Of a DNA stretch of 64,000 nucleotides, positions 9,786 through 32,767 are shown piece after piece. A program made the position numbers and the translations under genes. The notes below the pieces were generated by a model. That model did not search any database and was not told the DNA's origin. It worked only from the letters and a program-made list of their open reading frames with translations. The stretch is from an uncultured Planctomycetales bacterium. GTDB lineage: Bacteria > Omnitrophota > Gorgyraeia > Zapsychrales > JANLHA01. Every line of letters starts with the position of its first letter. Positions within the stretch are counted from its first letter, which is position 1. The stretch is taken from the NCBI GenBank assembly GCA_964474085.1, contig CAYYRJ010000011.1, positions 11,347 through 75,346 of the forward strand, in the 5' to 3' direction.

Positions 9786-9895
9786 AAATTACCGACCTTC
9801 AGGTACTCAACCTGAAGAATTTCTTACGTAACTTATTGGTAATGAAGGCTGATCGCCCGTGGTGGGTGGCTTGTGTGCCAGATTTGTGCCAATTC
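9786..9895 (-). pseudogene. Degenerate 3'-terminal remnant of a tyrosine-integrase gene of the same family as the int at 21058-22164. It includes the downstream hairpin and the 19-bp att-like core.
   Basis: Reverse-strand translation reads ...GTNLAHKPPTTGDQPSLPISYVRNSSG*. The int C-terminus reads ...GTNMAHRTPASTDSPSFPMGYK*. Both are followed by a cttcagg...cctgaag gtcgg hairpin (9786-9800 and 21028-21057). Confidence 0.5.
9874..9892. repeat. Left copy of a perfect 19-bp direct repeat, tgtgccagatttgtgccaa (candidate att core)
   Basis: Identical to 32749-32767. A 17/19 variant gtgccaTatttgtgccaG lies at 21108-21126 inside the int 3' end. Confidence 0.75.
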
Positions 9896-10359
9896 TATTG
9901 TGTGCGAATGTGAATGATTTTCTTCCCAACTGTATGAGCATAGGCCACAATGTCCCCGGTGCCTCCTAACCCGGCAGCCTTTTTCCCATCCCAAACTGCA
10001 ATCATAAAATCCGATTGATCTACAATTCTTTTTCCAGCCTCAAAATAACACGTCTCCCGTTCTTGATCCAGTTCCAATATCTCAACCTTATCCGCTTTTT
10101 TTAATAATTGCGAATATTCTTCCCTTAAATTTGAGTCTTGAAAAACAGTATCATAGTCTTTAAACGGCAATACAACCCACAAAGAACCGGAATGCTTTAA
10201 AATCGCCTTGGCAAAGACTTGATCTGCCCCCTTAGCCAATGAGGTTATTCCAATCACAGGCGATTCGATTTTCTTGAGATTTTCCTCTATCAAAGACTGT
10301 ATTTTAAGCCAATCGAATGGATTCTTTATTACTTGATGTCCCGTGATACCAATTTTCAT
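9895..10359 (-). CDS. SLOG-superfamily (YpsA/DprA/LOG-like Rossmann) protein, a predicted nucleotide/NAD-derivative binding protein
   Basis: MKIGITGHQ...GITSLAKGADQVFAKA...VVLPF...MIAVWDGKKAAGLGGTGDIVAYA matches the SLOG/YpsA architecture. Last gene of the NAD cluster. Confidence 0.4.
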   Translation of the reverse strand: MKIGITGHQVIKNPFDWLKIQSLIEENLKKIESPVIGITSLAKGADQVFAKAILKHSGSLWVVLPFKDYDTVFQDSNLREEYSQLLKKADKVEILELDQERETCYFEAGKRIVDQSDFMIAVWDGKKAAGLGGTGDIVAYAHTVGKKIIHIRTQ

Positions 10360-10409
10360 AAATCAATCCAATAGTAATTTCTCACAATCATTAAATTTGA
10401 TGGCAAATG

Positions 10410-10706
10410 CTATTCTATCAATTTATGGTAAGGGTTTTTAATTTCCGCAAAATCTTTGCCCACTTTGCGATATTCAGCCCATAACAATACATCTCTATAA
10501 TCCATTTTGGCGTGTTTAACATATTCACGCAGCTTTGCTAATTCTCCCTCAGAGCACTTTAAAATCGCAAGATGAACCCTACTAGATTCGTACTCATACT
10601 CTTCTTTGCCATAATCATCCAATATCTTAAGAATTAAATCCATCTTGTGTTGAGGAAATAATTTATTAACAGCTTTTTTCACATGATTTCTTGAATAGAG
10701 AACCAT
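10410..10706 (-). CDS. Hypothetical protein (98 aa)
   Basis: ORF in a co-directional tight array. No motifs. Confidence 0.35.
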   Translation of the reverse strand: MVLYSRNHVKKAVNKLFPQHKMDLILKILDDYGKEEYEYESSRVHLAILKCSEGELAKLREYVKHAKMDYRDVLLWAEYRKVGKDFAEIKNPYHKLIE

Positions 10707-10715
10707 AAATCCTGC

Positions 10716-11093
10716 TTATCTCATATAATGCCAATAAAATACCCATGAAAGAGTAGATCTTACAGTTGACAACTTAAAACCTTTTTGAGATTTATAAAAT
10801 TCCTTATCAAATCCTTTATAACAACCTGAAATATCTTTCTGTTTACCGTAAATACTAAAATTCTCGCCAAATTGCTCCCGATGTTCCCTTATAAACTGAA
10901 TTGCATCCTGATAATGTTTGATAGCCTTATTTAGAACGCTTTGATATTTTTTATCGTCATAACCTGACACACGTCTCTTCAAAGCACGACAAGCAGCCTT
11001 ATAGGATCCGTAGCTATCGTAATCAATAAAGAGCTGAGCAACTTGGATAGCCTCTTCCAATAAATCTTTTTTCTTTTTTTTGGGTTTAATCAT
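10716..11093 (-). CDS. Hypothetical protein (125 aa)
   Basis: ORF in a co-directional tight array. No motifs. Confidence 0.35.
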   Translation of the reverse strand: MIKPKKKKKDLLEEAIQVAQLFIDYDSYGSYKAACRALKRRVSGYDDKKYQSVLNKAIKHYQDAIQFIREHREQFGENFSIYGKQKDISGCYKGFDKEFYKSQKGFKLSTVRSTLSWVFYWHYMR

Positions 11094-11109
11094 TTTTTAA
11101 AAGCAAATT

Positions 11110-12102
11110 TTAGAATTTATTAAAAGATTTCAATACTTTTTTAACTTCGACCATGCGTTGTTCAAGTTTGCCTCTTAAAACAAAATAGGGAATTTTACGT
11201 TTTGTTAAATCTTTAATTATTTCTTCCTGAAAAATTGTCCTATTGGCATCACCAGATCGATCCCATGTATCATCGTATGGAATATCAACATCACAAACAA
11301 AAACAACATCATACCGCCCGACGCATTGGTCAGCTAAATCAGTGAGTCTTTCGTGAGCAGAGCCATGATAATACTGTGAGAATAAATACGTTGTTAGCGC
11401 ATTCGTATCTGAGAATAGAAATCTATTGGCTTCGCAAAGAAGTTTTTCTTCTCGCTCTAAATGACCTTCGGCGATCTCCACTAATTGCTCAAGCGTTAAT
11501 CTCCTATCTTTTTGATGCTTGTCCCAATATTCTCGGCCATATTCAGGCATCCAGACCGTTTTGAAATTCTTTGCTAGTTTTTGAACAAGCGTTGTTTTAC
11601 CCGTCGATGGCGCGCCCAAGAACACAATATTCATGACGAGGTCTTTATAAACAAAAGGATCTACATAATTTCGATATCGATAAGGATTCTTTCTGATCTG
11701 CGTAGCTGAAATTGAGATCTGCTTCCTTTTTTCATCGATCCTGCGATCCACTGCGGCCAATGACATACTCATATGTTCTCCGTAGAATTCACTTGAATAA
11801 AAATGTGTGATCTTACGGTCGCCTAGAATTCTTTTCACATACTTTTCCTGCATACGTTTAATTTTAGACGTATTCCCCATCCCGGCGGGACCATCCCAGG
11901 CTTCAATCACTTCGACTTGAGGATATAATTTTCTGATCCACCCTGCACGAACATCCAAAGGGATCTTAGTTGTTTCAGGACAGTTATAAATGAGAACGAT
12001 AAGCTGATCAACTTCGGCAAGAGCGGTTTCGATAAGATATTGATGCCCTTTGTGAAAAGGAGCGAATTTTCCTAACGTCAGTCCGACACGCTGTGTGGTC
12101 AT
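11110..12102 (-). CDS. nadR: Bifunctional NMN adenylyltransferase / ribosylnicotinamide kinase (NadR-like, without the N-terminal HTH)
   Basis: N-terminal nucleotidyltransferase HxGH motif (GKFAPFHKGHQYLI). C-terminal P-loop (FLGAPSTGKTTLVQKLA) is typical of the RNK domain. Confidence 0.75.
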   Translation of the reverse strand: MTTQRVGLTLGKFAPFHKGHQYLIETALAEVDQLIVLIYNCPETTKIPLDVRAGWIRKLYPQVEVIEAWDGPAGMGNTSKIKRMQEKYVKRILGDRKITHFYSSEFYGEHMSMSLAAVDRRIDEKRKQISISATQIRKNPYRYRNYVDPFVYKDLVMNIVFLGAPSTGKTTLVQKLAKNFKTVWMPEYGREYWDKHQKDRRLTLEQLVEIAEGHLEREEKLLCEANRFLFSDTNALTTYLFSQYYHGSAHERLTDLADQCVGRYDVVFVCDVDIPYDDTWDRSGDANRTIFQEEIIKDLTKRKIPYFVLRGKLEQRMVEVKKVLKSFNKF

Positions 12103-12686
12103 GTTTTGATCAAAAGGGATTTTATAGATTTTGATTCAAAAGATTTTTTCCATTCCAAGAGGCCAAAGATAGCCAAAAATAAAAATATAGTGTAAAGGCC
12201 TGACGTAAAATAGAGCTGTTTATACCAAAAAACGCCAACGGCCATAACATCCACCGCAATCCAAAAAAGCCAAGACTCTAGTTTCTTTTTTGTCAAAAGC
12301 CACTGTGCGATTAAACTCATAACAGCAATAAACCCGTCAAGATAAGGTACAGACGCATCCGTGTAACGATGCATTAAATATCCCCAAACACCCGTGATGC
12401 AAACTCCCAATACAATCCATAAAACAAGATCTTTCACAGTTAGTCTTGTCACTTTGAGAGGAGTTTTATTTTTACCGCCGTACAACCAGTTATACCAACC
12501 ATAAAGCTGCAGAGCGACATAAACAATCTGTAAAATAAAATCCGAATACAGTTTCGCCTGATAAAAAACAAAAATGTAAAGAACAACCTGCACTAATCCC
12601 GTTGGCCAACTCCAAATATTCTCGCGTACCGTAAGCCAAACACAACTGATCCCAAAAATCGTTCCTACTATTTCTATCCAATTCAT
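12099..12686 (-). CDS. pnuC: Nicotinamide riboside transporter PnuC
   Basis: 195-aa polytopic membrane protein with a Trp/Tyr-rich PnuC-like sequence (WLTVREN, WPTGLVQV). Overlaps the nadR-like gene by 4 nt. Confidence 0.65.
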   Translation of the reverse strand: MNWIEIVGTIFGISCVWLTVRENIWSWPTGLVQVVLYIFVFYQAKLYSDFILQIVYVALQLYGWYNWLYGGKNKTPLKVTRLTVKDLVLWIVLGVCITGVWGYLMHRYTDASVPYLDGFIAVMSLIAQWLLTKKKLESWLFWIAVDVMAVGVFWYKQLYFTSGLYTIFLFLAIFGLLEWKKSFESKSIKSLLIKT

Positions 12687-12692
12687 CGAGAA

Positions 12693-13346
12693 TTAAAATC
12701 CCAAAGTATCCGAATTAATAATCGCAACACCTTTAGACTGCATTTCTTCGATTGCACGATCCGTATCGTTTGTATGAAGATTAACCCCACGACAAGCGTC
12801 TTTGATCAAATAAGTTTTAAACCCTGCTTCAGCAGCATCTAAGGCCGTAAACTTGACGCAATAATCCGTAGCAAGACCAACCACATATATCTCCTGAACA
12901 CCTTGAGCCTTTAAATAGTCATCCAAGCCCGTCTTTTTCTTATGCCCATTATCAAAAAACGCACTATAACTATCAATCGCCGGATCAGTTCCCTTTTGAA
13001 ATATCTGCTTAATTTTTTTAATGACGAGATCCTTAACTAAAGCGGCCCCTCGGGATCCTTGAACACAATGATCTGGCCATAAAATCTGCTTTAATCCATT
13101 AAGTTCAATAACCTCCCCAACATTTTTACCGTTATTGCTTGCAAAACTTTTATGGTTCTGTGGATGCCAGTCTTGCGTAGCGACTATAAAGTCAAACTTG
13201 TTTTGTAGTTTATTTATTAACGGGACAATCTGATCCCCTTCTTTGACTGCAAGAGCTCCGCCGGGACAAAAATCATTTTGTATATCGACGATAATAAGTG
13301 CTTTCTTTTTCATAGCTTTATCCCTACCCGATGGGTGTCGCGCCAC
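12693..13346 (-). CDS. pncA: Nicotinamidase/pyrazinamidase PncA (isochorismatase family)
   Basis: ALIIVDIQNDFCPGGALAV catalytic Asp region, DWHP metal-binding motif and catalytic Cys (DYCV). Confidence 0.8.
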   Translation of the reverse strand: MARHPSGRDKAMKKKALIIVDIQNDFCPGGALAVKEGDQIVPLINKLQNKFDFIVATQDWHPQNHKSFASNNGKNVGEVIELNGLKQILWPDHCVQGSRGAALVKDLVIKKIKQIFQKGTDPAIDSYSAFFDNGHKKKTGLDDYLKAQGVQEIYVVGLATDYCVKFTALDAAEAGFKTYLIKDACRGVNLHTNDTDRAIEEMQSKGVAIINSDTLGF

Positions 13347-14808
13347 GATCTTTAAGAATCAAATCCATTTTTAGTTTAAATAAAGATTTTTCCAGTCCAA
13401 CGGGAAACTCATGTGGATTAACAAAACGTTTGATCCCCAAGTGAAATTTTGCCAAATTATTTTTGGCATAAGTCCTCACATCATCAATCGGGGGACTTTT
13501 ATAAACCTTTTCACCTCTCTGAAATATTGTTACCAAAAGATCTTCATAATTTGCGTCCGGTCTTATAGTCTTTTGGCGGGTCATATCTTTGGGATCCACC
13601 ATCGTACAACCACGAGCTAAATCCGTCCCCTCATCAAAAATAACGTCAGCAATAATTTCTTTATCATTAAAAAATCTACGCACTTGCTGTATTCCCGGAT
13701 TTGATACTTTAATATTTTGCTCAGAAAGTTTAACCTTATAACTCCACTTTCCATTCTTATTCTTTATCGCGGCAAGTTTATAGACTCCGCCCAAAGCAGG
13801 TTGATCATAAGCGGTCACCAATTTTGTCCCAACACCCCAGATTGAAATCTTTGCTCCTTGGTCTTTGAGGCTTTCAATAATATTTTCATCCAATTCATTA
13901 CTGGCGACGATTTTGGCATTTGGGAAACCACCCTGATCTAAAATATTTCTTGCTTCAATACTTAAATAAGCTAAATCGCCCGAATCTAAACGAATCCCTA
14001 TCATTTCGTGGCCATTTTTTCTAAGCCAGTTCCCAACCTCAACAGCTTTCTTAACCCCCTCCAAAGTGTCATAAGTATCGACTAAGAAAACACAGTTATT
14101 CGGCATAGCCTTGGCATATTCTTTGAAGGATTCCAACTCATTGTCAAAAGACATAACCCAGCTGTGAGCATGAGTCCCCTTAACCGGGATCCCGAAAATT
14201 TTTCCCGCCAAGACATTTGATGTTGCACCACATCCGCCGATATATGCTGCCCGTGAGGCGGCTAATGCTCCATCGATTCCCTGCGCTCTTCTTAATCCAA
14301 ATTCGAGAACCTCATCACCCTGAGCCGCAAAACATACCCTCGCCGCCTTAGTTGCTATCAAAGATTGGAAGTTGATAATATTAAGCAAAATTGTTTCTAA
14401 AATCTGGCACTGAATTAACGGTCCTTTGATGCGTAAAAGCGGTTCATGCGGAAAGACAACTGTGCCTTCCGCTATCGCATCGACATCGCAACTAAATTTC
14501 ATTTCCGTTAGATAATTTAAGAATTCTTTCTCAAATATCGGTTTATTATCATTCCCTTTGAGTGTCGCTAAATATTCGGCATCAGTGCTGTCAAATTTGA
14601 ATTCATTCAGAAAATTAACTACCGTTTCTAATCCGCAAGCAATGACAAATCCTCCATTAAAGGGATTTTTTCTGAAAAACAAATGAAAAACGGACTCCTT
14701 CTCATGGATGTTCGCTTTCCAATAACCATAGGCCATGGTCATCTGGTAAAGGTCTGTCAATAATGAGAACGACTGTGTGTATGGGAAATAATTATTATTC
14801 ATGGTCAC
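13324..14808 (-). CDS. pncB: Nicotinate phosphoribosyltransferase (long PncB/NAPRT type)
   Basis: N-terminal LLTDLYQMTMAYGYWK matches the conserved NAPRT N-terminal motif. Length 494 aa. Confidence 0.7.
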   Translation of the reverse strand: MTMNNNYFPYTQSFSLLTDLYQMTMAYGYWKANIHEKESVFHLFFRKNPFNGGFVIACGLETVVNFLNEFKFDSTDAEYLATLKGNDNKPIFEKEFLNYLTEMKFSCDVDAIAEGTVVFPHEPLLRIKGPLIQCQILETILLNIINFQSLIATKAARVCFAAQGDEVLEFGLRRAQGIDGALAASRAAYIGGCGATSNVLAGKIFGIPVKGTHAHSWVMSFDNELESFKEYAKAMPNNCVFLVDTYDTLEGVKKAVEVGNWLRKNGHEMIGIRLDSGDLAYLSIEARNILDQGGFPNAKIVASNELDENIIESLKDQGAKISIWGVGTKLVTAYDQPALGGVYKLAAIKNKNGKWSYKVKLSEQNIKVSNPGIQQVRRFFNDKEIIADVIFDEGTDLARGCTMVDPKDMTRQKTIRPDANYEDLLVTIFQRGEKVYKSPPIDDVRTYAKNNLAKFHLGIKRFVNPHEFPVGLEKSLFKLKMDLILKDRGATPIG

Positions 14809-14811
14809 TCC

Positions 14812-16401
14812 TTAAATTTTTCGACAAACTAATAATATGTTCGTTTCTGGATAATTCATCAGTTCTAGTTTTTCCCGATCCATCTCAAAAAGAGCAGCCT
14901 TCCCTGAATATCGGTTGTTTATAATCCATGAGTTAGCATAGGCCTTACTACCTGCATCTAGCTGAAAACCAACTTTGGTCAATTCGCGCTTCCAGTCCGA
15001 GAAGCTCCAAAAACAAAATGTTTCGTGCATTTCACTTTGCCAATTATCAACATAATCCTTCTTCGAGAGAAATTCGCAAGTATCTTGAAATCTCAGATTT
15101 ATAAAGTCCTCATTATTGATCTTTTTTATCTCATATCTCAAAAAATGATTCTCAAACTTTGAATAATCTCTCGCAAAACGTAAGAATTTCGCAAATGTTG
15201 ATAATCCTTTTAAATAAGAAGCTAAATCAGCCCGATCATTAAAATCTTTTTCAAAATCATCATTCCTGCCATCTGCTTGAGTTAATTTCAAGAACACCAT
15301 TCTTTCTTTATTCTCTGGGCCAACAACATCTCTATTGATCCAAACTCCGCCGGGCTTTAATTCTAAAAAACGATTTTGAAGAAATCTCAGCAAATCTTGT
15401 CTGCCGCCGTATGATTCAATCTCATGTGTTAAAGAAGAAGTATGAATCGTATTCATGGAATCTTTTTCATACACCAAATCCATCACCGCATTTTTTTGCG
15501 AAAAGAAAACAAACGGATTCTTAAATTCATTATTATGTTTCCTTTGCACACAAATATCATAAAGATGTCTTGCCGCCTCAACTCCATACAAATCACTTTC
15601 CCGAAACTGTGGATCCGCGCTAACCATTTTTATCCACGACCCAACAGCACAACCGATATCTCCAATCCGTCCCGGTTGAATATAGGGAGCGGTGTCTTGA
15701 TATTTGAGGTCGGCAATATCATCCATTTGCCGAACATAGCTGTTATAGTCTCTTGTCGAAGTGATATCTCCATCATCACCGACGATCTTGTCAGTAAAGA
15801 GCATTTTAACTTTGTCGGCTAATCCATATTGTTCCCAAATTCTTAATGACGCAGGATGAATTTTGCCTATGAGATCTTTCTGCTCTTTCCATTGCTTTGA
15901 CTGTGCAATTTGCTCAACAAGATGCCACGGATTTTCAGTTTTCACTTTATATGTGACTTTATCAACCAATTCAGCAGGTAATATTTTAAAACCCAAAGCC
16001 TCATACATTTCTAAAACCGGCGTCGAGCAAAGAACCAATGTATTAGCCGGGGACAGATCCAACAATCCATCACTCTCGTGCTTAATTTTCTTTAATGTAT
16101 AATTTGTAAAATCATTTAAATGCCCGACATCGTCTATCCCGTAGATATAGCAAGGAACACCCCGATCCTCAGAAAATTCCTGCAAAGCCATCGCTCGTAA
16201 ATAAAAAGGCAATGGGTTTCTTCTGGTATTTGAGTGGTTCGCGGAAGTCACGGCATAAATGATTCCCTCAATCACAACTTTAGGTAATGGTTTCCCATTA
16301 ACATCAATTTCGCCTTCACACTGCGAATCAATGAGGCGCTTCAAATAATTAAACTGAAAATTAGTCAGTAAATGATGTCTGCCGGGAAACAGAATGTACA
16401 T
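14812..16401 (-). CDS. Hypothetical two-domain protein: an unknown N-terminal domain (FPGRHHLLT, TSANHSNTRRN) plus a C-terminal class-I SAM-methyltransferase-like fold
   Basis: C-terminal half carries DIGCAVGSW (motif I-like) and LKPGGVWI (post-II-like). The N-terminus has nucleotidyltransferase-reminiscent but non-canonical motifs. Confidence 0.35.
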   Translation of the reverse strand: MYILFPGRHHLLTNFQFNYLKRLIDSQCEGEIDVNGKPLPKVVIEGIIYAVTSANHSNTRRNPLPFYLRAMALQEFSEDRGVPCYIYGIDDVGHLNDFTNYTLKKIKHESDGLLDLSPANTLVLCSTPVLEMYEALGFKILPAELVDKVTYKVKTENPWHLVEQIAQSKQWKEQKDLIGKIHPASLRIWEQYGLADKVKMLFTDKIVGDDGDITSTRDYNSYVRQMDDIADLKYQDTAPYIQPGRIGDIGCAVGSWIKMVSADPQFRESDLYGVEAARHLYDICVQRKHNNEFKNPFVFFSQKNAVMDLVYEKDSMNTIHTSSLTHEIESYGGRQDLLRFLQNRFLELKPGGVWINRDVVGPENKERMVFLKLTQADGRNDDFEKDFNDRADLASYLKGLSTFAKFLRFARDYSKFENHFLRYEIKKINNEDFINLRFQDTCEFLSKKDYVDNWQSEMHETFCFWSFSDWKRELTKVGFQLDAGSKAYANSWIINNRYSGKAALFEMDREKLELMNYPETNILLVCRKI

Positions 16402-17337: not shown

Positions 17338-17338
17338 T

Positions 17339-18710: not shown

Positions 18711-18720
18711 CCCCTTTGCT

Positions 18721-22628: not shown

Positions 22629-22639
22629 TGTAAATATAT

Positions 22640-25107: not shown

Positions 25108-25209
25108 TTTTTTCTCACTTTTTAAAATAAAAAACCCGTGATTTATTCAGTCACGGGTAAGAATAGCAAACACTTTAGGTTGTTCGCTGTGTGTCACATA
25201 AATTAGTTG

Positions 25210-25806
25210 CTATTTTTTGAAAATAATATTCTTTATGGTTGTCTCCTTGAGATTATAAGGATCTCGCTTGATCGGGACTTCTTCCAAAGACCGCTTTCGT
25301 GTAGTCCACATGCCGGAGAAAGGTTTCTCCGCGACGAATTTGTGCTTAATCTTTTTATATATAATCGCCCCTTTAATACCTTCTGATCGGAGTTGTCGAT
25401 ATGCTTTTTTTATCCACAAATCTTTATTTCGATTGAATTCTCTAATACCGGTAACAGCGCCGTAAGACTTTTTGCTCCGCCTCAATTCCCTTTGACCAAT
25501 ACTCTTTGGACGGTAAGTAAAATATTTATACAGACAATCTACATCACTAATTTTCATTCTTACCTGTCTTTGGTTTATCTCAGATGGATAAGCAATTACA
25601 GTGTATCTTCGCTTTTCAATATCCATCATCCATGCCATAATTCCGGTATCTCTATCTTTGATAAGATTTGTTACATAATGGGCAGGGAATGGTTTTGCCA
25701 AAGGAATCCCATCCTTAAAACCAAATTTCTTTAATAGTTTTTTCCCAGCTTTTAAATATTCAGCTTTGGTTTGATAAACGTCCTTGATCTTCTTAAAACC
25801 ACCCAC
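25210..25806 (-). CDS. Hypothetical basic protein (198 aa)
   Basis: Lys/Arg-rich ORF. No recognised motifs. Confidence 0.35.
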   Translation of the reverse strand: MGGFKKIKDVYQTKAEYLKAGKKLLKKFGFKDGIPLAKPFPAHYVTNLIKDRDTGIMAWMMDIEKRRYTVIAYPSEINQRQVRMKISDVDCLYKYFTYRPKSIGQRELRRSKKSYGAVTGIREFNRNKDLWIKKAYRQLRSEGIKGAIIYKKIKHKFVAEKPFSGMWTTRKRSLEEVPIKRDPYNLKETTIKNIIFKK

Positions 25807-25839
25807 ATCTTCCTCACATTTTCAGTAAAAGTGCAGCCT

Positions 25840-26793
25840 TCAGCTCGAACCCGAAACGGTCGGAAATGTCCCGGTCTCTGTTTTTCCTAAAATCTCAAGT
25901 GGTTGAGGAGTTTGTAGGTCTCGCCAAAATTCCATTGCATCCGCAGTACGATACGAAACTCTACGTCGCAGTGCTTTCTCCAAGGCAAAACTATATGGCG
26001 ACTGAAGCTGCAAAGCCATCTCACGCGGTTTACCACTCAAAATCTCCTCCTGAGTAAACCTCAATTCTTTTGAGCATGCCAATTCAAGTAATAGAAGCCC
26101 TGCATGGTATATATCAATACGATGATCTATGGGGCCAAACTCATTAGGATTCAAAACTTCCGGGGGAACCATCCATTGCGCCCTCGTATTTCTTGCATCA
26201 ACCTCATGAAATAATTTTGCAACACCAAGATCACCAAGTTTAAACTGCATTATTTCCTGATTTGTTGGGACCATTTCATCTTTTACCAAAGCAGTAAATA
26301 CATTGGCGGAATGAATATCCTGATGAGCATAATTGTTAATATGAAGATAATGAACGACTTGCAAAAGTGATCTGGCTATGGGCATTAACCATGCTTGCCC
26401 AGCAAAATTCGGAATTGCAAATAGCTGTTTGACCGAACAGTAACATCGTTCGGTTATGATATAAAATGTATCTCTGTATTCAAACGCATCATAAACAAAA
26501 GTAATATGTGGATTACGGAGCTGTAAAAGTTTAATAAGCTCAGCTTGCGCATCTGCTTTTACTTTTTCATAAGCTCTCCCTGTCGGTTTTAAAACTTTAG
26601 CCGCTAGGTCATTTCCCCAAACATCTTTGCATGAATAAACAACCCCAAAATTCCCCTCACCAATTTTCTCCCCCATAGTATAAGTATTATTTGTCGCTAA
26701 ACTGGTTATGACTTCGCCCACAGATGGAGGAACCATCATCCTAACCTGGGGAATACTTTGGGGTGAAGCTGGCTCTGGTAACTGCTGAGTCAT
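25840..26793 (-). CDS. Atypical eukaryotic-like Ser/Thr protein kinase domain protein, last gene of the hsdRMS operon
   Basis: Gly-rich loop GEGNFGVVYS, VAIK-like LAAKVLK, catalytic loop HQDIHSANVF (Asp retained, Lys replaced by His), DFG-like DLGVAKL, and APE-like PPEVL. Confidence 0.6.
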   Translation of the reverse strand: MTQQLPEPASPQSIPQVRMMVPPSVGEVITSLATNNTYTMGEKIGEGNFGVVYSCKDVWGNDLAAKVLKPTGRAYEKVKADAQAELIKLLQLRNPHITFVYDAFEYRDTFYIITERCYCSVKQLFAIPNFAGQAWLMPIARSLLQVVHYLHINNYAHQDIHSANVFTALVKDEMVPTNQEIMQFKLGDLGVAKLFHEVDARNTRAQWMVPPEVLNPNEFGPIDHRIDIYHAGLLLLELACSKELRFTQEEILSGKPREMALQLQSPYSFALEKALRRRVSYRTADAMEFWRDLQTPQPLEILGKTETGTFPTVSGSS

Positions 26794-26799
26794 TTTTTA

Positions 26800-27981
26800 T
26801 CAATTCTCGCTAAACGCCTGATGAAGCAACGATTGAAATAAATGCTCGGCTTGGCGTAAGGATTCTGCCTGTACATAGTTAAAACGCTCCTGTTTTGTAA
26901 AAACATCAACAAACTTTTTCTGAAGTGATAGCGATGGAACGATGATCGGGATGTCAGCTAAATCTTTATAATAGATCGCAAATACACTCGTTGTTCCAGA
27001 TTTAATTCGTTCCAAATTTTGTTTCAGCCAGGGAGATTGGAATAAACCAATCATAAATTCTGGCGTTAACATCGACTTAAAACGTATTCGCATAATATTG
27101 TTATTAAATAATCGCACCCCATGCCGTTGGGTATAAAGAGCTGTCTTCCCGACCAATTCTTTAGAATTACGCGTATTAAATAAAAAATCTCCAAATTGAA
27201 GACTAAAGCTACGAACTTCGGTGTCTGTTGCCTCAACTCGCTTTAATTTATTTAAATCTAATGTGCCGTCACCAATAATTGAATCCATCCTCAAATATTC
27301 ATAAGGATAGCTGTTATTCATTTCAACTGCCCCACGTACAAGTCCAAGCTGATTAGAATCAACCATATCTCCAAATGCGACTTGTTCGTAGCTGGCTGCG
27401 GTTTCCTTCAAATCACCAAACATCTCAACAAATACAGCGGGAAGGAATGAATCGCTCATTTCAAGCACATATCTGCGGATACGACGAAGGCGGTCGGCTT
27501 GATCCAATACTTTTACAATCTGTTTTTGCTTGGAAAGAGGTGGATAATAAATACTGCAGTCTAAAAGACGTTCATTATTTAAAATTGGAACAAGAGCCTG
27601 ATTTGCGTTTCTTTCAATTCGTGGCTTATTAAATAAAAACCAATAATAAGCAAAATCACTATCAATTTCATCATTAAAATTTAGTGCTGTAATTTGTTGA
27701 TTTGAGGAAGATTCTCGACGCAATATCCCGACTCTTCCAATTTCTCCAATACATGTAACTAATAAGGTGCCCCGCTGAAGCACTTTAGCTTTACCTTCTT
27801 CTACCGCTTTAGCTGTGATTCGACGCGAAGCAACTAATAGATTCTTAGAATTACCAATATCTGATGGAGTATACCAATCAATATCTCCATTAAAATACGC
27901 TGGCTCTTTCGTTGGAGGTGTTGTACCTGTTTGCACTCCAGTGACAACTTCAGCTAATGGACAAACAGTCCAATTCTTCAT
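26800..27981 (-). CDS. hsdS: Type I restriction-modification specificity subunit HsdS
   Basis: 393 aa with two target-recognition-domain halves separated by conserved helical spacers. Overlaps hsdM by 4 nt. Confidence 0.75.
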   Translation of the reverse strand: MKNWTVCPLAEVVTGVQTGTTPPTKEPAYFNGDIDWYTPSDIGNSKNLLVASRRITAKAVEEGKAKVLQRGTLLVTCIGEIGRVGILRRESSSNQQITALNFNDEIDSDFAYYWFLFNKPRIERNANQALVPILNNERLLDCSIYYPPLSKQKQIVKVLDQADRLRRIRRYVLEMSDSFLPAVFVEMFGDLKETAASYEQVAFGDMVDSNQLGLVRGAVEMNNSYPYEYLRMDSIIGDGTLDLNKLKRVEATDTEVRSFSLQFGDFLFNTRNSKELVGKTALYTQRHGVRLFNNNIMRIRFKSMLTPEFMIGLFQSPWLKQNLERIKSGTTSVFAIYYKDLADIPIIVPSLSLQKKFVDVFTKQERFNYVQAESLRQAEHLFQSLLHQAFSEN

Positions 27982-29684
27982 ATCAATTCTTTCACTAACT
28001 TAATACTCTGATTAGCCACCATATCTAATGATTGAAGCCGCTCAAGAGTAACCCGTGGTTTCTCATAATAAATTTCATCCTGCTCAATCAAACGATACCT
28101 ACTGGATGACAGATCATATTTATTCGTTTTTAATTTATCCTTGGCTACCCAAAACTGTCGCGTGAGCTGGTTAATCTCTTTTTGAAGAGGTTCAATTTCT
28201 TTATGCAGATCATTCAATTTAGACGTGTCTGCGTCTAACGCTAACCGTGCCTTTTCATTACCATCATCCGCAATCACCTGTTCAAAAGTTAAACGATTCA
28301 CTTCTGCTAAAAGCACAAGGCGTTTCTTTTTTAAAGGGGTAATGCTTTCTTGAAGTTCTGCGAGCCTTTTTTCTCTTACCTGTGAAAATTTTTTATCAAA
28401 ACGGTTTCTCCAACACTCAAGAAGATCGGGAAGATCACTCTCATCAACTTTTTGACGCTTATCATCCAGCGAGAAGCCATCATGTTCCATATCATAAAAC
28501 CAAACTTTTTCCGTTGATGCCCCTCTGGTAAAAAACAACACAGCCGTTGATACTCCTGCATAAGGCCTGAATACACCAGACGGCATTGACACAACTCCAT
28601 CTAAACGGTTTTCCTCAATCAGTTTCTTTCTGATCTCCAAATGCGCCTGATTGGAGCCAAATAAAACACCATCTGGCACAATAACAGCTGCTCGGCCACC
28701 ATTCTCTAAAAGTCTTAGAAATAAATGCAAAAACAGCAGTTCCGTCTTTTTACATTTAGTCGGAAGAGTAGGATTAACATCAGATGAGTCTATTGCACCT
28801 TTAAAGGGTGGATTGGCTAAAATAATGTCGTACTTTCTTTCTTCGTTATATGCCTTTGATAGAGCGTCAGTATGTTTGAAGTTCGGCTGGGCGATACCAT
28901 GTAAAATAAGATTCATAGAACCGATGCGAAGCATTGTCATACCTGCGTCATTGTCATACGCAGTGATTGCTTCTTTTTGTAAGAATTCACTTTGTTCTTT
29001 GGTTAATTTGTCGCCGACTAATTTGTGTGGGAAACCATCTTCATCATAAGTAAGCAATTTAGGATCGGTATTCTTTTCTAAAATGTATTGATAGAAATTA
29101 ACCGGGAAACCACATGTCCCGGCCGCTGGGTCGCACATCTTCTCACCCGGGCGAGGATCGATCATCTGCACCATCATACGAATAATATGGCGCGGTGTTC
29201 TAAACTGGCCATTAGTACCTGCTATATTGAGCTTACTTAAAAGGTATTCATAAAGATCTCCCTGCACATCCTGATTTTGATTTGAAATTTGCATTTCATC
29301 AATCAGGCGACATGCTTCTATCAAAAGACTTGGGCGTTTAATCTTAAACTCAGCATTTTCCATCTGATCAGCAAATGATCCGCCTTCGCCTCCCAATTCT
29401 TTAATAAAAGGAAACACCTTTTCCTTAACTATCTTTAGAGCTTTTTCAGCATCTAAATTTGACCAATACGACCAACGCAATTCCTTGTCTTTAAAAATTG
29501 GCTCATATTTAAGTTTGCGTAACTTCGAGACTCGTTCTCGATCTTCTTCTGCTTCTTCCAATCGCTTTAGAAACAACAAAAAAGAAAGCTGCTCAATGGC
29601 ATCAAGTGGATTAGCTAATCCACCCGACCATAATTTGTCCCATAAAGAATCGACCTTTGACCGTAAATTTGAATCAGTTAGCAT
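27978..29684 (-). CDS. hsdM: Type I restriction-modification N6-adenine DNA methyltransferase subunit HsdM
   Basis: HsdM N-terminal domain (RSKVDSLWDKLWSGGLANPLDAIEQLSFLLFLKRL). SAM motif DPAAGTCGF. Catalytic motif IV ILANPPFKG. Confidence 0.9.
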   Translation of the reverse strand: MLTDSNLRSKVDSLWDKLWSGGLANPLDAIEQLSFLLFLKRLEEAEEDRERVSKLRKLKYEPIFKDKELRWSYWSNLDAEKALKIVKEKVFPFIKELGGEGGSFADQMENAEFKIKRPSLLIEACRLIDEMQISNQNQDVQGDLYEYLLSKLNIAGTNGQFRTPRHIIRMMVQMIDPRPGEKMCDPAAGTCGFPVNFYQYILEKNTDPKLLTYDEDGFPHKLVGDKLTKEQSEFLQKEAITAYDNDAGMTMLRIGSMNLILHGIAQPNFKHTDALSKAYNEERKYDIILANPPFKGAIDSSDVNPTLPTKCKKTELLFLHLFLRLLENGGRAAVIVPDGVLFGSNQAHLEIRKKLIEENRLDGVVSMPSGVFRPYAGVSTAVLFFTRGASTEKVWFYDMEHDGFSLDDKRQKVDESDLPDLLECWRNRFDKKFSQVREKRLAELQESITPLKKKRLVLLAEVNRLTFEQVIADDGNEKARLALDADTSKLNDLHKEIEPLQKEINQLTRQFWVAKDKLKTNKYDLSSSRYRLIEQDEIYYEKPRVTLERLQSLDMVANQSIKLVKELI

Positions 29685-29685
29685 T

Positions 29686-32442
29686 TTAAGCCTCTATCTT
29701 TTCAGTGAACTCCAACAAATCACGCACATCATTGGGAGTAAAAAGTTTATCGACAGCGTTTCTACCAAAATTGGTTAACGGCGCTTCATAAAGATCCGCC
29801 TCACTAAGTTTTCGTTTTTGTAAAAATACACTCTGGACAGCACGCAAAAATAAGATTTGATCAGCGTTATAATGATGTTCAGTAATAAAATTCTCGAAAC
29901 AACGCCCCACAACAGCAGCATACTCGGGAATAGTATCGAGCGATAATATATGGCGGATAAACCCTAAGAAGCTATTAACCTTTAAGCCATACGCACGCTT
30001 AATATTCAAAGGACTCAGTTGGATATCTCCTCCCGATAAACCCTCGTGCAAAGCCCGCTCTAAAGAAATCAAATCTTCTTCACTTACTTCCCTGCCTTGA
30101 CGAATCGCTTCAATAGCAGGATGGTTTTCTATAATCGAAAGAACTTTTGCTTCGACCCGCTTTCTATACTCTTCAACATAAATCTGCTCACCACCCTCGC
30201 CAATTGAGATAAGGCCGCGCGTATCAATAAAATCAGGGAGGTCGATTGAAATAAAAGTGTTTTGTCGGTTCCGACGATTACGCATAACCCCTGCCAAATC
30301 TGTGATGATCCGACGTAATTCTTTGGGTGACGCATTTGCCAATTTATCGGATAAACATAATTCAGCCGACTTTGAATACTTTTCATCTTTTAAAATATAT
30401 TCGGGCAAAAGACTGACATCTTCGGCAATTGAACGCAATAATTCAGGGGATACTTTACCAGTGAATACTTGATAACGAAGCCGTTCGACTTTGCTGGTAA
30501 ATGTTTCGGCCGCAACATCCACCTCCCCAACAAATCTTAACAACGGCCCAATTCTAAGACGCAAGAATTCAACTTTATCATTAGTTAATAATGTCCAGTA
30601 TTCATCACCCCAAACATGTTCAATCTCTACCCAGACCCTTCTTACTGAAAAGCAATCCGTCGGGATACGATTCACCATGGCCCGCAAATCTGATATGACC
30701 TGTGCATAATCCTCAGCCTGTATTGATTTATCCAGCGATTCTAAAATTTTTAATCTGGTGTTAAAAATTGACACCAGAACAGGGATTACCGGAGAGGCTC
30801 CGCCTTTAGGGTCTTTTTGAAAATCATTCTGCCAGAAATCGATAATTTTAAATTCTGTTTTCTTGCCATCTGGCAATCTTTCGGAATACATACAAACAGC
30901 ATTGCTTCTTGTGCCGCGCCCTATCATCTGCCACATTTTGATTTGCGATTGAACGGGTTTCATGAAAACCAAGTTCACCACCTCGGGGACATCAATGCCG
31001 GTGTCGAGCATATCAACAGAGATAGCAATCCTTGGCAAATTGTTCTTTTTGAATTTTGTAATTAGTCCATCCCCATAACTACCGTCACGGACACGTTCTG
31101 TGCTAGATGTTATAACCTGCACTAAATCTAATTGCTGAGGATACATTTCTTCAAAAATTTCACGGATTCGCTCTGCGTGTTCCTTGGTCATGGCAAAAAT
31201 AATCGTCTTTCCCGGAAGCTGACCAGATTGATCTTTTAAACACGCTTCCCATATCTCTTCCCATTGCTTACGAAGGGTGTCTTTGTTACTGACCTCCACT
31301 TCAATATCTGTTCCGGAATAATCGATGTCGTCCGGGTCAATGCCTTGAGCGATCAAAGCATTTTTGTCCTCTTCGCTTAATTCAATGCCTTTAATTCCTT
31401 TACGCTGAAACCCTGTCTGGGCTTGATATAAACTAAAATTGACGAGATATTCTTCCCTTACAGCAGTTTTATAGTCATATAAAAAAGTCGGAGTGCTATT
31501 TTGGCAACCAAAAACCCCGAAAGTATCTCTATCTATAAAAGTGGCTGGTGTGGCTGTAAGGCCGACCATACGTGCGTCAAAATAATCCATGACTTCTGAG
31601 AAACGATGAAAGATTGACCGATGGGCTTCATCAAAAATAATCAGATCAAAGAAACCCGGGCTAAACTTTGTATAGCAAACATTCATCGTTTGTTCAGTCG
31701 CCACAAACAAACGCTTTGTCGTATCGATGTTACGGGTATAAATGCGATCTCGAGGCTCATTAGGTAAATGCGCTTTGAACCCATCAGATAACGCCTGCTC
31801 AACCAGCGCATCACGATCAGCTAAAAAGAGAACATTTCTCGCTTGGTTCGTTTTTAAAAATATATCAATCAATGCCATTGTTGTACGCGTTTTACCCGTT
31901 CCTGTTGCCATTACCAAAAGCGCTCGTCGCCTGCCTTCTTCAAAAACTTCACAAACCCTGCGCACAGCTTCCTGCTGATAAGGGCGATTAGCAATAGTCC
32001 TATTGATCAAAGTTTCATTTAGTGATTGCTGATTTTGACGGAGGAAAAGAAGGCGGGTTAAATCGTCTGGACTAAAAAATCCGGCAACCAATCTCGGATG
32101 GGCAAGACCAATTTCCCAGAAATAAGTATTAAGACCATTCGACATAAATCCGAATGGCGTAAATTCTTGATTCTTACTGATGTAATTTAAATAATATCGT
32201 AACTGTTCATCTGCTTCCCTCGGGCTACGGCTCATTTTCTTGGCTTCTACAACAGCCAAGACATTGTTACGGGAGTCGTACAAGCAATAATCGGTCACGC
32301 CATTCCATGGTTCTTTGTCATAGCCGTCAACAGGCACTTCCCTGCGGACTTTTGTGAGATCGTTTAAATCCCATCCAGCTGATGTTAAAAGCGGATCAAT
32401 TATTTTGATACGTGTTTTTGCTTCATTTAATTCATCTGGCAT
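29686..32442 (-). CDS. hsdR: Type I restriction enzyme endonuclease/translocase subunit HsdR
   Basis: N-terminal HsdR_N nuclease region (KTRIKIIDPLLTSAGWD). SF2 helicase motifs MATGTGKTRT (I), IIFDEAHRS (II) and a QxxGR-type motif VI region. Confidence 0.9.
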   Translation of the reverse strand: MPDELNEAKTRIKIIDPLLTSAGWDLNDLTKVRREVPVDGYDKEPWNGVTDYCLYDSRNNVLAVVEAKKMSRSPREADEQLRYYLNYISKNQEFTPFGFMSNGLNTYFWEIGLAHPRLVAGFFSPDDLTRLLFLRQNQQSLNETLINRTIANRPYQQEAVRRVCEVFEEGRRRALLVMATGTGKTRTTMALIDIFLKTNQARNVLFLADRDALVEQALSDGFKAHLPNEPRDRIYTRNIDTTKRLFVATEQTMNVCYTKFSPGFFDLIIFDEAHRSIFHRFSEVMDYFDARMVGLTATPATFIDRDTFGVFGCQNSTPTFLYDYKTAVREEYLVNFSLYQAQTGFQRKGIKGIELSEEDKNALIAQGIDPDDIDYSGTDIEVEVSNKDTLRKQWEEIWEACLKDQSGQLPGKTIIFAMTKEHAERIREIFEEMYPQQLDLVQVITSSTERVRDGSYGDGLITKFKKNNLPRIAISVDMLDTGIDVPEVVNLVFMKPVQSQIKMWQMIGRGTRSNAVCMYSERLPDGKKTEFKIIDFWQNDFQKDPKGGASPVIPVLVSIFNTRLKILESLDKSIQAEDYAQVISDLRAMVNRIPTDCFSVRRVWVEIEHVWGDEYWTLLTNDKVEFLRLRIGPLLRFVGEVDVAAETFTSKVERLRYQVFTGKVSPELLRSIAEDVSLLPEYILKDEKYSKSAELCLSDKLANASPKELRRIITDLAGVMRNRRNRQNTFISIDLPDFIDTRGLISIGEGGEQIYVEEYRKRVEAKVLSIIENHPAIEAIRQGREVSEEDLISLERALHEGLSGGDIQLSPLNIKRAYGLKVNSFLGFIRHILSLDTIPEYAAVVGRCFENFITEHHYNADQILFLRAVQSVFLQKRKLSEADLYEAPLTNFGRNAVDKLFTPNDVRDLLEFTEKIEA

Positions 32443-32689
32443 TGGGGTATATGCTCTCTGATCTTTAACTTACTACGGGCGATGTATTCGCCGATTTATC
32501 ATGATACCTTCCGGGTCATCCACTGCCACCAACTTTAAAGCCCGGTTACCTATATCCGGGCCAAGTATTCAACGGTGTATGTATCTGCTGAGATCATTAA
32601 AATTCCGCTATGGGCTATTCAAAATATTCAGTATTGTAACATTGTTACCTTTTTCCTGCCACCATTTCCATCCGATAAGTCTATTGCCT

Positions 32690-32722
32690 CATTATATATA
32701 AACCACCGTACAGGGGTGTCAA
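32690..32722 (-). promoter_or_regulatory. Sigma70-like promoter for the hsdRMS-kinase operon: TTGACA (plus 32717-32722), about 17-nt spacer, ATATATAAT
   Basis: Reverse strand reads ctTTGACAcccctgtacggtggtttATATATAATgag. Shares the ggggtgtcaa -35 context with the nrtR and int promoters. Confidence 0.5.
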
Positions 32723-32748
32723 AGGGAGGATTTTGGTATGCCAAAAAT

Positions 32749-32767
32749 GTGCCAGATTTGTGCCAAC
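32749..32767. repeat. Right copy of the perfect 19-bp direct repeat tgtgccagatttgtgccaa (candidate att core). It is embedded in three 11-bp periods beginning TGCCA.
   Basis: Identical to 9874-9892. The reverse-strand translation of the flank again gives an integrase-tail-like VGTNLAH. Confidence 0.75.

Follow-up and report, generated by a model that had tools for sequence, protein, structure and literature searches.

The segment from 3.9 to 44.6 kb of the window (the whole 64-kb stretch of DNA analysed) is a tandem array of integrative elements at one tRNA-Met gene, an accretion of a known kind. Four stacked modules (E3, E2, E1 and E0) lie between the intact tRNA-Met gene and rtcR, and the 19-mers repeated within the array most likely mark genomic islands stacked by successive insertion at this gene. 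Judging from sequence comparison and a predicted fold, the 19-mers themselves are most likely binding sites for the integrase N-terminal domain in the arms of a lambda-type att site, and not the crossover point. We regard this combination (a tandem array at tRNA-Met, a lambda-type heterobivalent integrase and 19-mers that serve as its arm sites) as the best explanation and as quite probable. The array represents ordinary mobile-element biology in a little-studied phylum.

The 19-mers and the tRNA-Met target

A search of the 64-kb window located exact copies of TGTGCCAGATTTGTGCCAA at 9874-9892 and 32748-32766 and a 17/19 variant, TGTGCCATATTTGTGCCAG, at 21110-21128 within the int gene; the initial annotation had reported all three, with the right copy one base off (32749-32767) and the variant two bases off (21108-21126). 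Read on the int strand, the 19-mer consists of two TGGCACA heptamers 11 bp apart. Three heptamers are present at 32737-32766 and two at each other 19-mer site, and the 11-bp periodicity noted initially is real. The left copy and the int 3' end align as a 100-nt direct repeat (9792-9891 versus 21028-21127, 71% identity). The left copy translates to NRIGTNLAHKPPTTGDQPSLPISYVRNSSG followed by a stop codon, the int C-terminus ends in KAGTNMAHRTPASTDSPSFPMGYK, and the right copy yields KVGTNLAHFWHTK before continuing. The same hairpin follows both int-like tails, as had been noted: CTTCAGG-N7-CCTGAAG at 9797-9817 and TCAGG-N7-CCTGA at 21035-21051, each then followed by GGTCGG on the int strand. The proposal that the left copy is an integrase 3'-end remnant is borne out by its 77-79% identity to the int 3' ends of three related loci (L001, L083 and L084) over heptamers, tail and core, with noise-level identity upstream.

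The target of the whole array is the intact tRNA-Met gene (CAT anticodon; 44556-44632, minus strand; ARAGORN; Rfam RF00005, 61.5 bits), and not an integrase tail as first proposed. Beyond it lie enolase and an FtsB-like gene, in a synteny shared with the related loci L086 and L088. Two further repeats were missed by the initial annotation. The first is a perfect 48-nt direct repeat (32870-32917 = 44555-44602) of the tRNA-Met 3' half; the displaced half at 32870-32917 (minus strand) constitutes island E3's far att junction, and the core within it, CTCATAACCTGAAGGTC (32899-32915), is the tRNA-side core for E2. The second is the 10-mer CCTGAAGGTC, found at 9794, 21030, 32899 and 44584 with 0.06 occurrences expected. 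The crossover region is probably the tRNA-Met anticodon-arm segment corresponding to CTCATAACCTGAAGGTC, within which we tentatively place the exact position of strand exchange.

The right-hand 19-mer sits within the P' arm of E2 (32737-32869, minus strand). In this arm, a conserved spacer joins the tRNA terminator hairpin (32838-32862) to three heptamers (TGGCACA at 32759-32765, TGGCACA at 32748-32754 and TGGCATA at 32737-32743), and a TTGACA/TATATA promoter follows the heptamers. L002 and L088 use the same site, with the same order of tRNA-Met, terminator, conserved spacer and three heptamers. The P' arm of E2 and those of L088, L086 and L002 align from the tRNA through the heptamers and diverge right past them; taken alone, this divergence is also compatible with crossover at the heptamers.

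Modules of the array and their flanks

Island E3 (32918-44554, minus strand) is a defence island flanked by the 48-nt tRNA repeat. By Pfam, it carries its own XerC-like integrase (43545-44444), a GmrSD/HNH nuclease, AAA_17, GNAT and ASCH proteins, a resolvase and a SocA/Panacea antitoxin pair. The body of E2 (22165-32736, minus strand) is an int/xis/primase/type I restriction-modification element. It encodes hsdR (29686-32442), hsdM (27978-29684) and hsdS (26800-27981), named from reading their translations, together with Pfam-assigned genes for a Ser/Thr kinase (25840-26793), a SpoVG-like protein (24787-25107), a Prim-Pol/AAA_25 primase-helicase (23061-24815), an excisionase-like HTH_17 protein close to int (22434-22628) and an XRE repressor-like protein on the plus strand (22229-22441).

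Module E1 (9893-21027, minus strand) contains neither an integrase nor recognisable P' heptamers; in the close relative L084, it is missing from the interval between int and rtcR. It comprises HicA/HicB (20166-20917), a 147-aa ORF, a partial copy (19572-19657) of a repeat that we call type-i, and an NrtR-regulated NAD salvage cluster encoding NrtR, SPFH, a 311-aa ORF, a 529-aa transferase, PncB, PncA, PnuC, a NadR-like protein, two small ORFs and SLOG (9895-10359). In L165 and L166, the cluster occupies other contexts; the L165 copy is near-identical (NrtR and PncB 97% identical) and that of L166 is more distant. The initial annotation would have had the cluster accompanied by a flanking 19-mer or integrase remnant. 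The L166 cluster has no heptamer pair or remnant, and the same is true of the visible part of L165, in which the downstream side ends with the contig. The NAD genes thus represent cargo that is independent of the sites.

The left 19-mer belongs to a relic P arm (9792-9892, minus strand; heptamer pair 9874-9891) that starts 2 nt past the SLOG stop codon and is devoid of an integrase body. Its tail retains TACCAATAAGTTA, an IHF-like site at a distance of 50 nt from the first heptamer, and the hairpin at 9797-9817 is accompanied by CCTGAAGGTC at 9794-9803. After this core comes the type-i sequence (9690-9791, minus strand), which includes a promoter-like element and, on the opposite strand, a terminator, partly matches 19572-19657, and is shared with the post-hairpin DNA of int in L001, L083 and L084 (72-74% identity versus a 55% background). 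Module E0 (3876-9689, minus strand), probably the oldest, also lacks an integrase and encodes MarR, a C92 amidase-like protein, an alpha/beta hydrolase and lipoproteins (Pfam). At its end, a degenerate heptamer pair, TTGGCACTGATCTGGCATC (3876-3894), occupies the space between the last stop codon of the module and that of rtcR. The host flank (637-3874) consists of rtcR (2249-3874, plus strand) and rtcB (637-2154, minus strand), which are 94% and 92% identical, respectively, to the genes directly after the integrase region in L084, where E0 is missing and rtcR directly follows the int region.

The integrase and the probable arm-type sites

The E2 integrase (21058-22164, minus strand; PF00589, E=2.8e-39) is predicted to be a three-domain, lambda-type tyrosine recombinase. 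Its AlphaFold model contains a confident beta3-alpha N-domain (residues 3-50) and a tail (residues 340-368) with pLDDT below 50 that is encoded by the P arm. The best Foldseek matches to the model are full-length lambda Int structures (1z1b and 1z1g), at a sequence identity of only 16-17%. The P arm (21028-21128, minus strand) holds a heptamer pair, a hairpin and a core-like 10-mer and shares 89% identity with the corresponding block of L083. The pair (21110-21127) lies inside the int ORF, where it encodes GTNMAH; the stop codon (21058-21060) ends the ORF 5 nt before the core hairpin (TCAGG-TTCAAAT-CCTGA, 21035-21051), and the core-like CCTGAAGGTC at 21030-21039 is 88 nt from the first heptamer. 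A CCTGAAGG-like motif stands at exactly this distance in each of the subfamily's 11 full-length P arms.

Comparison with public contigs places the heptamers relative to the site of exchange. About 24 related elements have their heptamer pairs enclosed by tRNA-derived direct repeats (18-99 nt): one pair is part of the int ORF tail, 45-113 nt ahead of the int-side repeat, and a matching pair or triple lies inside the other end, 105-141 nt past the distal repeat. Among 26 related loci that carry a direct repeat of 18 nt or more around their integrase end, mostly a tRNA piece, the exact phased 7-mer pair of the P arm recurs in the element's own P' arm in 18, versus 2 for a control region 800 nt deeper. 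The heptamer varies among elements (TGGACAC, CTGACAC, TGGTTAC, TGTCACA, ACTATAC, TAGCACA, GTCCCCA) and agrees between both arms of one. The tRNA repeats outside the heptamers, the pair at both ends and this co-variation between arms together argue for arm-type sites of a lambda-like integrase; the earlier remark that the repeats resemble recombinase-binding sites thus appears apt. In the wider family, the pair is inside the int ORF in 109 of 112 loci, and is 11-bp phased in 94 of these.

L086 provides a clean single element of the same subfamily, with an intact tRNA-Met on one side and a displaced 3' half of tRNA-Met on the other. Its order is tRNA-Met, about 110 nt, heptamers, a 6-kb body, int with two TGGCACA copies and the displaced half starting from CTCATAA; the int ORF ends inside the anticodon-loop copy, and the displaced and resident T-stems differ by compensatory changes.

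Proposed assembly of the array and relation to known systems

On the observed repeats, geometry, heptamer co-variation between arms, homology breakpoints and predicted fold, we base a model of how protein may bind the heptamers and of the order and mechanism by which the insertions may have occurred. The catalytic and core-binding domains of the integrase would act on the tRNA-Met anticodon-arm core CTCATAA-CCTGAAGGTC, and the N-terminal domain may bind direct TGGCACA heptamers with 11-bp spacing in both attP arms. In the P arm, the first of two heptamers would be separated from an IHF-like site by about 50 nt and from the core by exactly 88 nt, and roughly the last 30 codons of int, which encode the predicted disordered tail, would overlap this arm; the P' arm would comprise the tRNA 3' end, terminator, conserved spacer and three heptamers. 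The copy at 32748-32766 would then be part of the P' arm of E2, that at 21110-21128 part of its P arm inside int, and that at 9874-9892 part of a relic P arm with which E1, the NAD-salvage module without an integrase, ends. E0 and E1 may be older insertions, E1 either having inserted at the core that separates the P arm of int from type-i or representing the stripped remains of an older element. E2 would be the intact element, and E3, with its different integrase, would have inserted last, into the regenerated tRNA-Met gene. Successive site-specific insertion, as proposed initially, is supported.

Several features of the array fit this model less readily. The tRNA core and the int-side cores of the window are identical over only 10-12 nt, the int-side hairpin loops (TTCAAAT and TTGAGTA) differ from each other and from the anticodon loop (CTCATAA), and no T-arm follows either int-side core in the window; therefore, the int-side cores are not textbook attR junctions. 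The absence of an integrase and of recognisable P' heptamers from E1 also counts against it. Furthermore, integrase-less modules share precise start and end boundaries in several loci, which simple decay does not predict.

These boundaries could instead reflect capture of cassettes, in which modules of type-i, cargo, heptamer pair, tail and core were non-autonomous circles that the resident integrase inserted and excised through recombination between cores downstream of int; accretion would then be integron-like or CIME-like and not a row of decayed full elements. The modules begin right past a core, and the heptamer pair at which they end follows their last stop codon by 2-3 nt, a pattern found in the window (E1 and E0), in L001 (an AbiE module) and in L088 (two modules), and the 85-nt type-i sequence with which modules start is conserved among four genomes that differ in cargo. 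Type-i directly follows the int core in L083 and L084 and the relic P arm in the window, as expected if E1 and its P arm had inserted at the int core, and titles cited in PMC5812530 document accretion and cis-mobilisation of integrase-less islands for ICESt elements. Nevertheless, we consider this route unlikely: the pattern is confined to about five loci, the differing loops speak against an exchange inside the loop, P' heptamers are missing from the modules, relic pairs downstream are a rarity in the wider family (1 of 62 loci), and two-step decay of full elements would produce the same end state.

The initial annotation took the 19-mer in the int 3' end as the crossover core, with each arrival displacing or reconstituting the integrase tail and the left copy as a displaced tail. 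The perfect repeats at both outer ends with a variant inside int, the P' region conserved from tRNA to heptamers and diverging right past them, the termination of integrase-less modules exactly at the heptamer pair in the window, L001 and L088, and the precedent of attP within int in Mx8 (PMC6070905; PMC4383910) are all in its favour. However, it is very unlikely, because in about 24 loci of the family the tRNA-derived repeats are found beyond the heptamers at either end and the displaced tRNA half of L086 is downstream of the tail. Moreover, the window int and the 88%-identical int of L083 share 89% identity upstream and again through heptamers, tail and core, falling to 46% (noise) just after CCTGAAGG; this indicates that tail and hairpin travel with int and are not replaced by arrivals. 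The strict 88-nt heptamer-core spacing is expected of a P arm and unexpected of a target sequence, and the predicted excised-form tail (HFWHTKILPL...) would lack the conserved IHF-like site and core. That the repeats are chance matches or a generic dispersed repeat unrelated to integration is hardly credible and is rejected, as only weak 15/19 matches at 3876 and 28642 and a stray CCTGAAGGTC at 59001 favour it, whereas 100 dinucleotide-preserving shuffles contained no match to the 19-mer at up to three mismatches, the identical 19-mer recurs in the P' and relic arms of L088, another genome, and the repeats are tightly associated with this integrase family.

Under the preferred reading of arm sites at a tRNA-Met core, E2 most resembles lambda, in which attP combines a C-O-C' core and IHF sites with two arm sites in P and three in P' (10.1101/2023.11.06.565760). 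Shared features are the predicted three-domain protein with full-length lambda Int as its best structural match, direct arm repeats arranged as two on the int-proximal and three on the distal side, a motif resembling a bend site between arm sites and core, an excisionase-like gene, and int transcription towards att. In contrast to lambda, E2 has a tRNA-Met gene as its predicted target, has its int-proximal arm inside the int ORF, translated as a disordered tail, and uses strictly 11-bp phased heptamers. In Mx8 and archaeal SSV-type elements, attP likewise overlaps the int coding sequence (PMC6070905, PMC4383910), but there the crossover falls within the ORF, and int is consequently rewritten or split on integration. 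In E2, only the arm is inside the ORF, which stops before the core hairpin (in L086, inside the anticodon-loop copy), and the protein would therefore be unchanged by integration.

As a whole, the array matches the Islander definition of tandem genomic islands at tRNA genes (PMC4383910) and, going by the titles of Pavlovic 2004 and Bellanger 2011 as cited in PMC5812530, the ICESt1/ICESt3-CIME accretion of Streptococcus thermophilus: successive site-specific insertions at one tDNA, the newest adjoining the intact gene and older units without integrase keeping att-derived ends. Relative to these descriptions, the older units of the window differ in keeping a whole P arm and core and no P' arm, and its internal cores in being hairpins with altered loops. 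Finally, in KplE1/HK620-type modules, att arm sites overlap the integrase promoter (PMC2951348), at the 5' end and on the attL side, whereas the overlap in the window is at the 3' coding end; in both, arm-type sites lie within integrase gene sequences, an arrangement that may couple recombination and int expression (PMC2951348).

Heptamer pairs and a probable tRNA-Met target

The 19-mer TGTGCCAGATTTGTGCCAA has exact copies at 9874-9892 and 32748-32766 and a 17/19 variant at 21110-21128, within the integrase ORF (int, 21058-22164, minus strand), and zero matches to it were found in any shuffle of the window. The repeats described in the initial annotation are real, with coordinates that were 1-2 bases off, and all three translations given there are correct. 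Its view of the left copy as an integrase remnant also stands; this copy heads a 100-nt block (9792-9891) that is 71% identical to the 3' end of int with its downstream hairpin (21028-21127). Read on the int strand, every 19-mer consists of two TGGCACA heptamers spaced 11 bp apart; three heptamers lie at 32737-32766 (the third being TGGCATA), two at 21110-21127 and two at 9874-9891.

Two features at this locus had been overlooked: a tRNA-Met(CAT) gene at 44556-44632 and, at 32870-32917, a displaced 3' half of tRNA-Met that is a perfect 48-nt repeat of 44555-44602 and lies 103 nt from the right-hand 19-mer. The sequence CCTGAAGGTC, the 3' strand of the tRNA anticodon stem plus the variable loop, occurs at 9794, 21030, 32899 and 44584 (0.06 occurrences expected), and the copies at 9794 and 21030 form the 3' side of the two hairpins described previously. 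A fifth exact copy at 59001-59010 is intergenic, has neither heptamers nor an integrase in its neighbourhood and is probably due to chance. The repeats are meaningful, and the 19-mers are most likely arm-type binding sites of a lambda-like system targeting tRNA-Met, not the att core. In such a system, the N-terminal domain of the integrase (residues 1-55) would bind the heptamer-pair DNA TGGCACAAATCTGGCACA, and strand exchange would fall inside the core CTCATAACCTGAAGGTC and not at the 19-mers.

The form of the tRNA anticodon arm (TCAGG-CTCATAA-CCTGA) and of the int-side hairpins fits inverted core-type sites around a 7-bp overlap. The loops of the window hairpins differ from CTCATAA, and only CCTGAAGGTC is common to them and the tRNA; loop identity between the flanking hairpins, sought as proof of exchange across a loop overlap, was not found. 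Nine int-proximal cores, including both of those in the window, are perfect hairpins of the form TCAGG-N7-CCTGA(A/G)GG, with stems identical to the anticodon stem and with loops all unlike CTCATAA and unlike one another; no T-arm follows any of the nine. These hairpin-type cores may act as int terminators or represent internal sites that were inactivated, or they may have some other role. We rejected the idea that the hairpin downstream of int is a piece of another tRNA's T-arm: the stems are those of the tRNA-Met anticodon stem, and the position is that of the anticodon arm in canonical junctions. With the Rfam gathering thresholds, only the tRNA was detected in the window, and the repeat units match no known RNA family.

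The integrase family and the anatomy of its element ends

Homologues of the integrase number 6338 at E<1e-20, and Omnitrophota and neighbouring uncultivated phyla account for many of them. Residues 173-327 match PF00589 (E=2.8e-39), and the catalytic residues R203, K228, H288, R291, H314 and Y323 are invariant among the 23 homologues compared. Residues 1-70 gave zero Pfam matches. In the AlphaFold model, strands at 3-7, 10-16 and 22-28 and a helix at 31-50 (pLDDT 87-93) make up a predicted N-terminal domain, and residues 340-368 form a disordered tail (pLDDT below 50). Foldseek placed full-length lambda Int chains first, with about 350 aligned columns, and ranked IntI4 only 13th. The model thus predicts a separate arm-binding N-terminal domain made of a three-stranded sheet and a helix. 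An excisionase-like HTH_17 gene lies at 22434-22628 (E=4.4e-12).

The C-terminal tails of the homologues carry subfamily-specific GTN(M/L)AH or MDT(F/I)WTP sequences followed by about 20 hypervariable residues, and the DNA that encodes these sequences is a heptamer pair, TGGCACA-N4-TGGCACA or TGGACAC-N4-TGGACAC. In 109/112 loci, the int ORF contains an exact phased pair (11-bp phasing in 94 of the 109), and the median distance from this pair to the stop codon is 86 nt. Conserved C-terminal "motifs" such as GTNMAH and MDTFWTP are accordingly imprints of DNA sites and not protein features. Some integrases (P0036, P0040, P0055, P0058, P0074, P0087 and P0096) have C-termini that are literal translations of a tRNA D-arm (..AHSSIG, ..IAQSVRAGDS, ..LAQLVERQ); their ORF calls continue into a tRNA gene in the same orientation, which is either an annotation artefact or real read-through.

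Of 164 loci retrieved from public genome and metagenome contigs, 26 contain a 2-10 kb element that has the integrase at its end and is flanked by a direct repeat of 18 nt or more. The flanking repeats are mostly tRNA pieces of 23-62 nt. The heptamer pair of the int tail is 45-113 nt inward from the int-side repeat, and 105-141 nt inward from the distal repeat this heptamer recurs in two or three copies. The heptamer varies among elements (TGGACAC, CTGACAC, TGGTTAC, TGTCACA, ACTATAC, TAGCACA, GTCCCCA and others), while the two arms of one element agree: an exact phased 7-mer common to an element's own two arms was found in 18/26 loci, compared with 2/26 for a control region deeper in the element. 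The initial proposal that the 19-mer is the att core was therefore not borne out; with tRNA repeats outside the heptamers on both sides and heptamers matched between the arms, the anatomy is that of arm-type sites around a tRNA-borne core and not that of a crossover site.

Nor do the homology breakpoints agree with the suggestion that integration swaps the int tail. With the aligner used, unrelated sequence scores about 55%. The window int is 89% identical to that of the related locus L083 over the upstream 150 nt and 89% over the heptamers, tail and core, and 46% over the next 80 nt. For the relic P arm (9792-9892) compared with loci L001, L083 and L084, the corresponding values are 51-57%, 77-79% and 72-74%. 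The tail and hairpin thus travel with int across loci, and homology breaks at the core, after the stop codon and hairpin. In the relic P arm, the integrase body is, on sequence comparison, the sole part lost.

Within the tRNA-Met subfamily, locus L086 has a clean single element, with an intact tRNA-Met, a terminator, a spacer, heptamers, a 6 kb body, int with two TGGCACA heptamers and a displaced tRNA-Met 3' half. This half begins (CTCATAACCTGAAGGCC...) 81 nt from the first heptamer, the 17-nt CTCATAACCTGAAGGCC is common to the core and its tRNA, and the displaced and resident T-stems differ by compensatory changes. At about 11075-11085 of L086, the displaced half carries a copy of the anticodon loop, CTCATAA, whose final TAA is the integrase stop codon, so that the ORF ends inside the recombination core. 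Loci L002 and L088 have the same entry site as the window, comprising a tRNA-Met gene or fragment, a terminator, a conserved spacer and three heptamers. The distance from the first heptamer to the start of a CCTGAAGG-like motif is exactly 88 nt in 11/11 full-length P arms of the subfamily. In 7/14 P arms, an IHF-like WATCAANNNNTTR (at most one mismatch; chance, 5% per 60 nt) occurs at a distance of 48-50 nt from that heptamer; it is present in the relic arm of the window and absent from the int copy.

A search of genome contigs yielded distant relatives only (at most 54% identity), and an empty tRNA-Met site of a close relative was not among them. For a very large uncharacterised integrase family, these results work out the att-site anatomy (arm sites, spacing, core and target), which allows island boundaries to be called precisely in Omnitrophota and neighbouring uncultivated phyla and is of moderate interest for the annotation of uncultivated phyla.

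Stacked modules at the tRNA-Met locus

The idea of accretion put forward earlier holds, in that elements are stacked at tRNA-Met. Read in the int direction, from right to left, the intact tRNA-Met is followed by E3 (32918-44554), a defence island that encodes an XerC-like integrase of its own and has the 48-nt repeat at its borders. Beyond it lie the displaced, core-carrying tRNA half, the three-heptamer P' arm of E2 and the E2 body, which encodes a type I R-M system, a kinase, a primase-helicase, an XRE-like protein, the excisionase-like HTH_17 protein and the integrase. The P arm inside int and the hairpin core lead into E1, with HicAB and then an NrtR-regulated NAD-salvage cluster, and thereafter into the relic P arm (9792-9892) and a type-i sequence. 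E0, the last module, encodes MarR, an amidase-like protein, a hydrolase and lipoproteins and ends in a degenerate heptamer pair at 3876-3894, before rtcR and rtcB. The NAD-salvage cluster, the type I R-M system and the other defence genes are thus accessory cargo stacked at one tRNA gene.

E3 is an 11.7-kb island directly in tRNA-Met, with perfect 48-nt flanks at 32870-32917 and 44555-44602; its genes include the XerC-like integrase (43545-44444), a GmrSD_N+HNH nuclease, an AAA_17 kinase-like protein, GNAT, ASCH, a serine resolvase and a SocA/Panacea antitoxin module. The Islander criteria call for an intact tDNA, a displaced fragment in the same orientation and one integrase per island, and E3 qualifies with its 48-nt fragment and own integrase. 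E2 has its own integrase, but its core copy is just 10 nt (or 14 of 17). No integrase gene was found in E1, which is flanked by the 12-nt CCGACCTTCAGG and the 100-nt repeat at 71% identity; because E1 and E0 lack the integrase expected of each island, they are counted as relics. The degenerate pair TTGGCACTGATCTGGCATC at 3876-3894 occupies the 21 nt that separate a lipoprotein ORF's stop codon from that of rtcR, resembles the P' variant TGGCACTGATTTGGCACA of L086 and is probably the terminus of an older module (3896-9689). In the close relative L084 (RtcR 94% and RtcB 92% identical), the integrase region leads straight into rtcR, without E1 and E0.

The NAD cluster (9895-19470) comprises PncA, PncB, PnuC, a NadR-like protein, a 529-aa transferase with Bacteroidota homologues of about 60% identity, SPFH and an SLOG protein. 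In L165, where NrtR and PncB are 97% identical to those of the window, the cluster has different neighbours; no heptamer pair lies beside it in the visible part of the contig, which ends inside PncB. A more distant copy (72-76% identical) in L166 adjoins rtcR and has no heptamers. This recurrence in other contexts indicates that the cluster is cargo. The L165 variant has an added ADP-ribosylglycohydrolase, and the window cluster lies among defence islands; a tie to NAD-depleting defence is possible.

The 85-nt type-i repeat (..AAAACCGAAATCCCCCCTTTGG..ATATAA..) has window copies at 9690-9775 and 19572-19657 (87-92% identical) and further copies in L001 (11154), L083 (155 and 10984) and L084 (11153 and 11451). 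It holds an opposite-strand terminator and a promoter-like element, matches no Rfam family, and occurs in several genomes at module starts and after the P' heptamers, where its second half is found. The window copy at 19572-19657 marks a mosaic boundary; the likeness of the adjacent 19523-19569 to 32688-32734 was not adopted as a junction of its own, as it looks like common promoter architecture (TTGACACCCC...TATATA).

Integrase-less modules in the window, L001 and L088 have an identical type of boundary: they start right after a core, often with the conserved 85-nt type-i repeat, and end with a heptamer pair 2-3 nt past the last stop codon. Their cargo includes NAD salvage, AbiE and methyltransferases, among others. 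In L088, the P' arm is separated from the element body by an additional heptamer pair (6625-6643) that encloses a small module of two ORFs, so that modules may pile up on the P' side too. Across the family, relic heptamer pairs downstream of int are rare (1/62 loci), and relic arrays are therefore specific to the tRNA-Met subfamily.

These sequence boundaries hint at the capture of integrase-less cassettes at the core. The boldest form of this idea is that, in the tRNA-Met subfamily, a heptamer pair with its tail and core, a unit 100 nt long, would be a portable recombination end, and that the resident integrase would capture and release modules consisting of type-i promoter, cargo and unit, core by core, just downstream of int. 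We consider this unlikely at present; about five loci and mismatched loops are too little to claim cassette capture. If it were true, the altered hairpin loops might decide which sites pair; only if it holds is a new mechanism involved.

Comparison with known recombination systems

In lambda attP, a C-O-C' core with a 7-bp overlap is accompanied by IHF sites and by arm sites, two in the P arm and three in the P' arm (10.1101/2023.11.06.565760). The E2 system resembles lambda in its domain plan, arm-site numbers and layout, with the binding being predicted; it differs in that the int-proximal arm lies within the ORF and the target is a tRNA gene. In Mx8 and SSV, the crossover lies inside int (PMC6070905, PMC4383910). 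In contrast, integration here leaves the int coding sequence unchanged and unsplit, as the homology break follows the stop codon and hairpin and the tRNA repeats lie beyond the ORF. CIME-like islands have att-derived repeats on both sides and no integrase, and are mobilised by the integrase of a neighbour. Tandem islands at tDNAs are documented (PMC4383910), as is, according to the references listed in PMC5812530, the accretion of integrase-less islands (Pavlovic 2004, Bellanger 2011).

Portable-unit modules, if they exist, would amount to a cassette array of the integron kind in a lambda-type system. An integron consists of an IntI-type integrase with attI and of promoterless cassettes that end in a palindromic attC. 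The present system differs from integrons: a directional P arm takes the place of an imperfect palindrome as the repeat unit, promoters are found within the modules themselves, and the best structural match of the integrase is lambda Int, with IntI4 13th.
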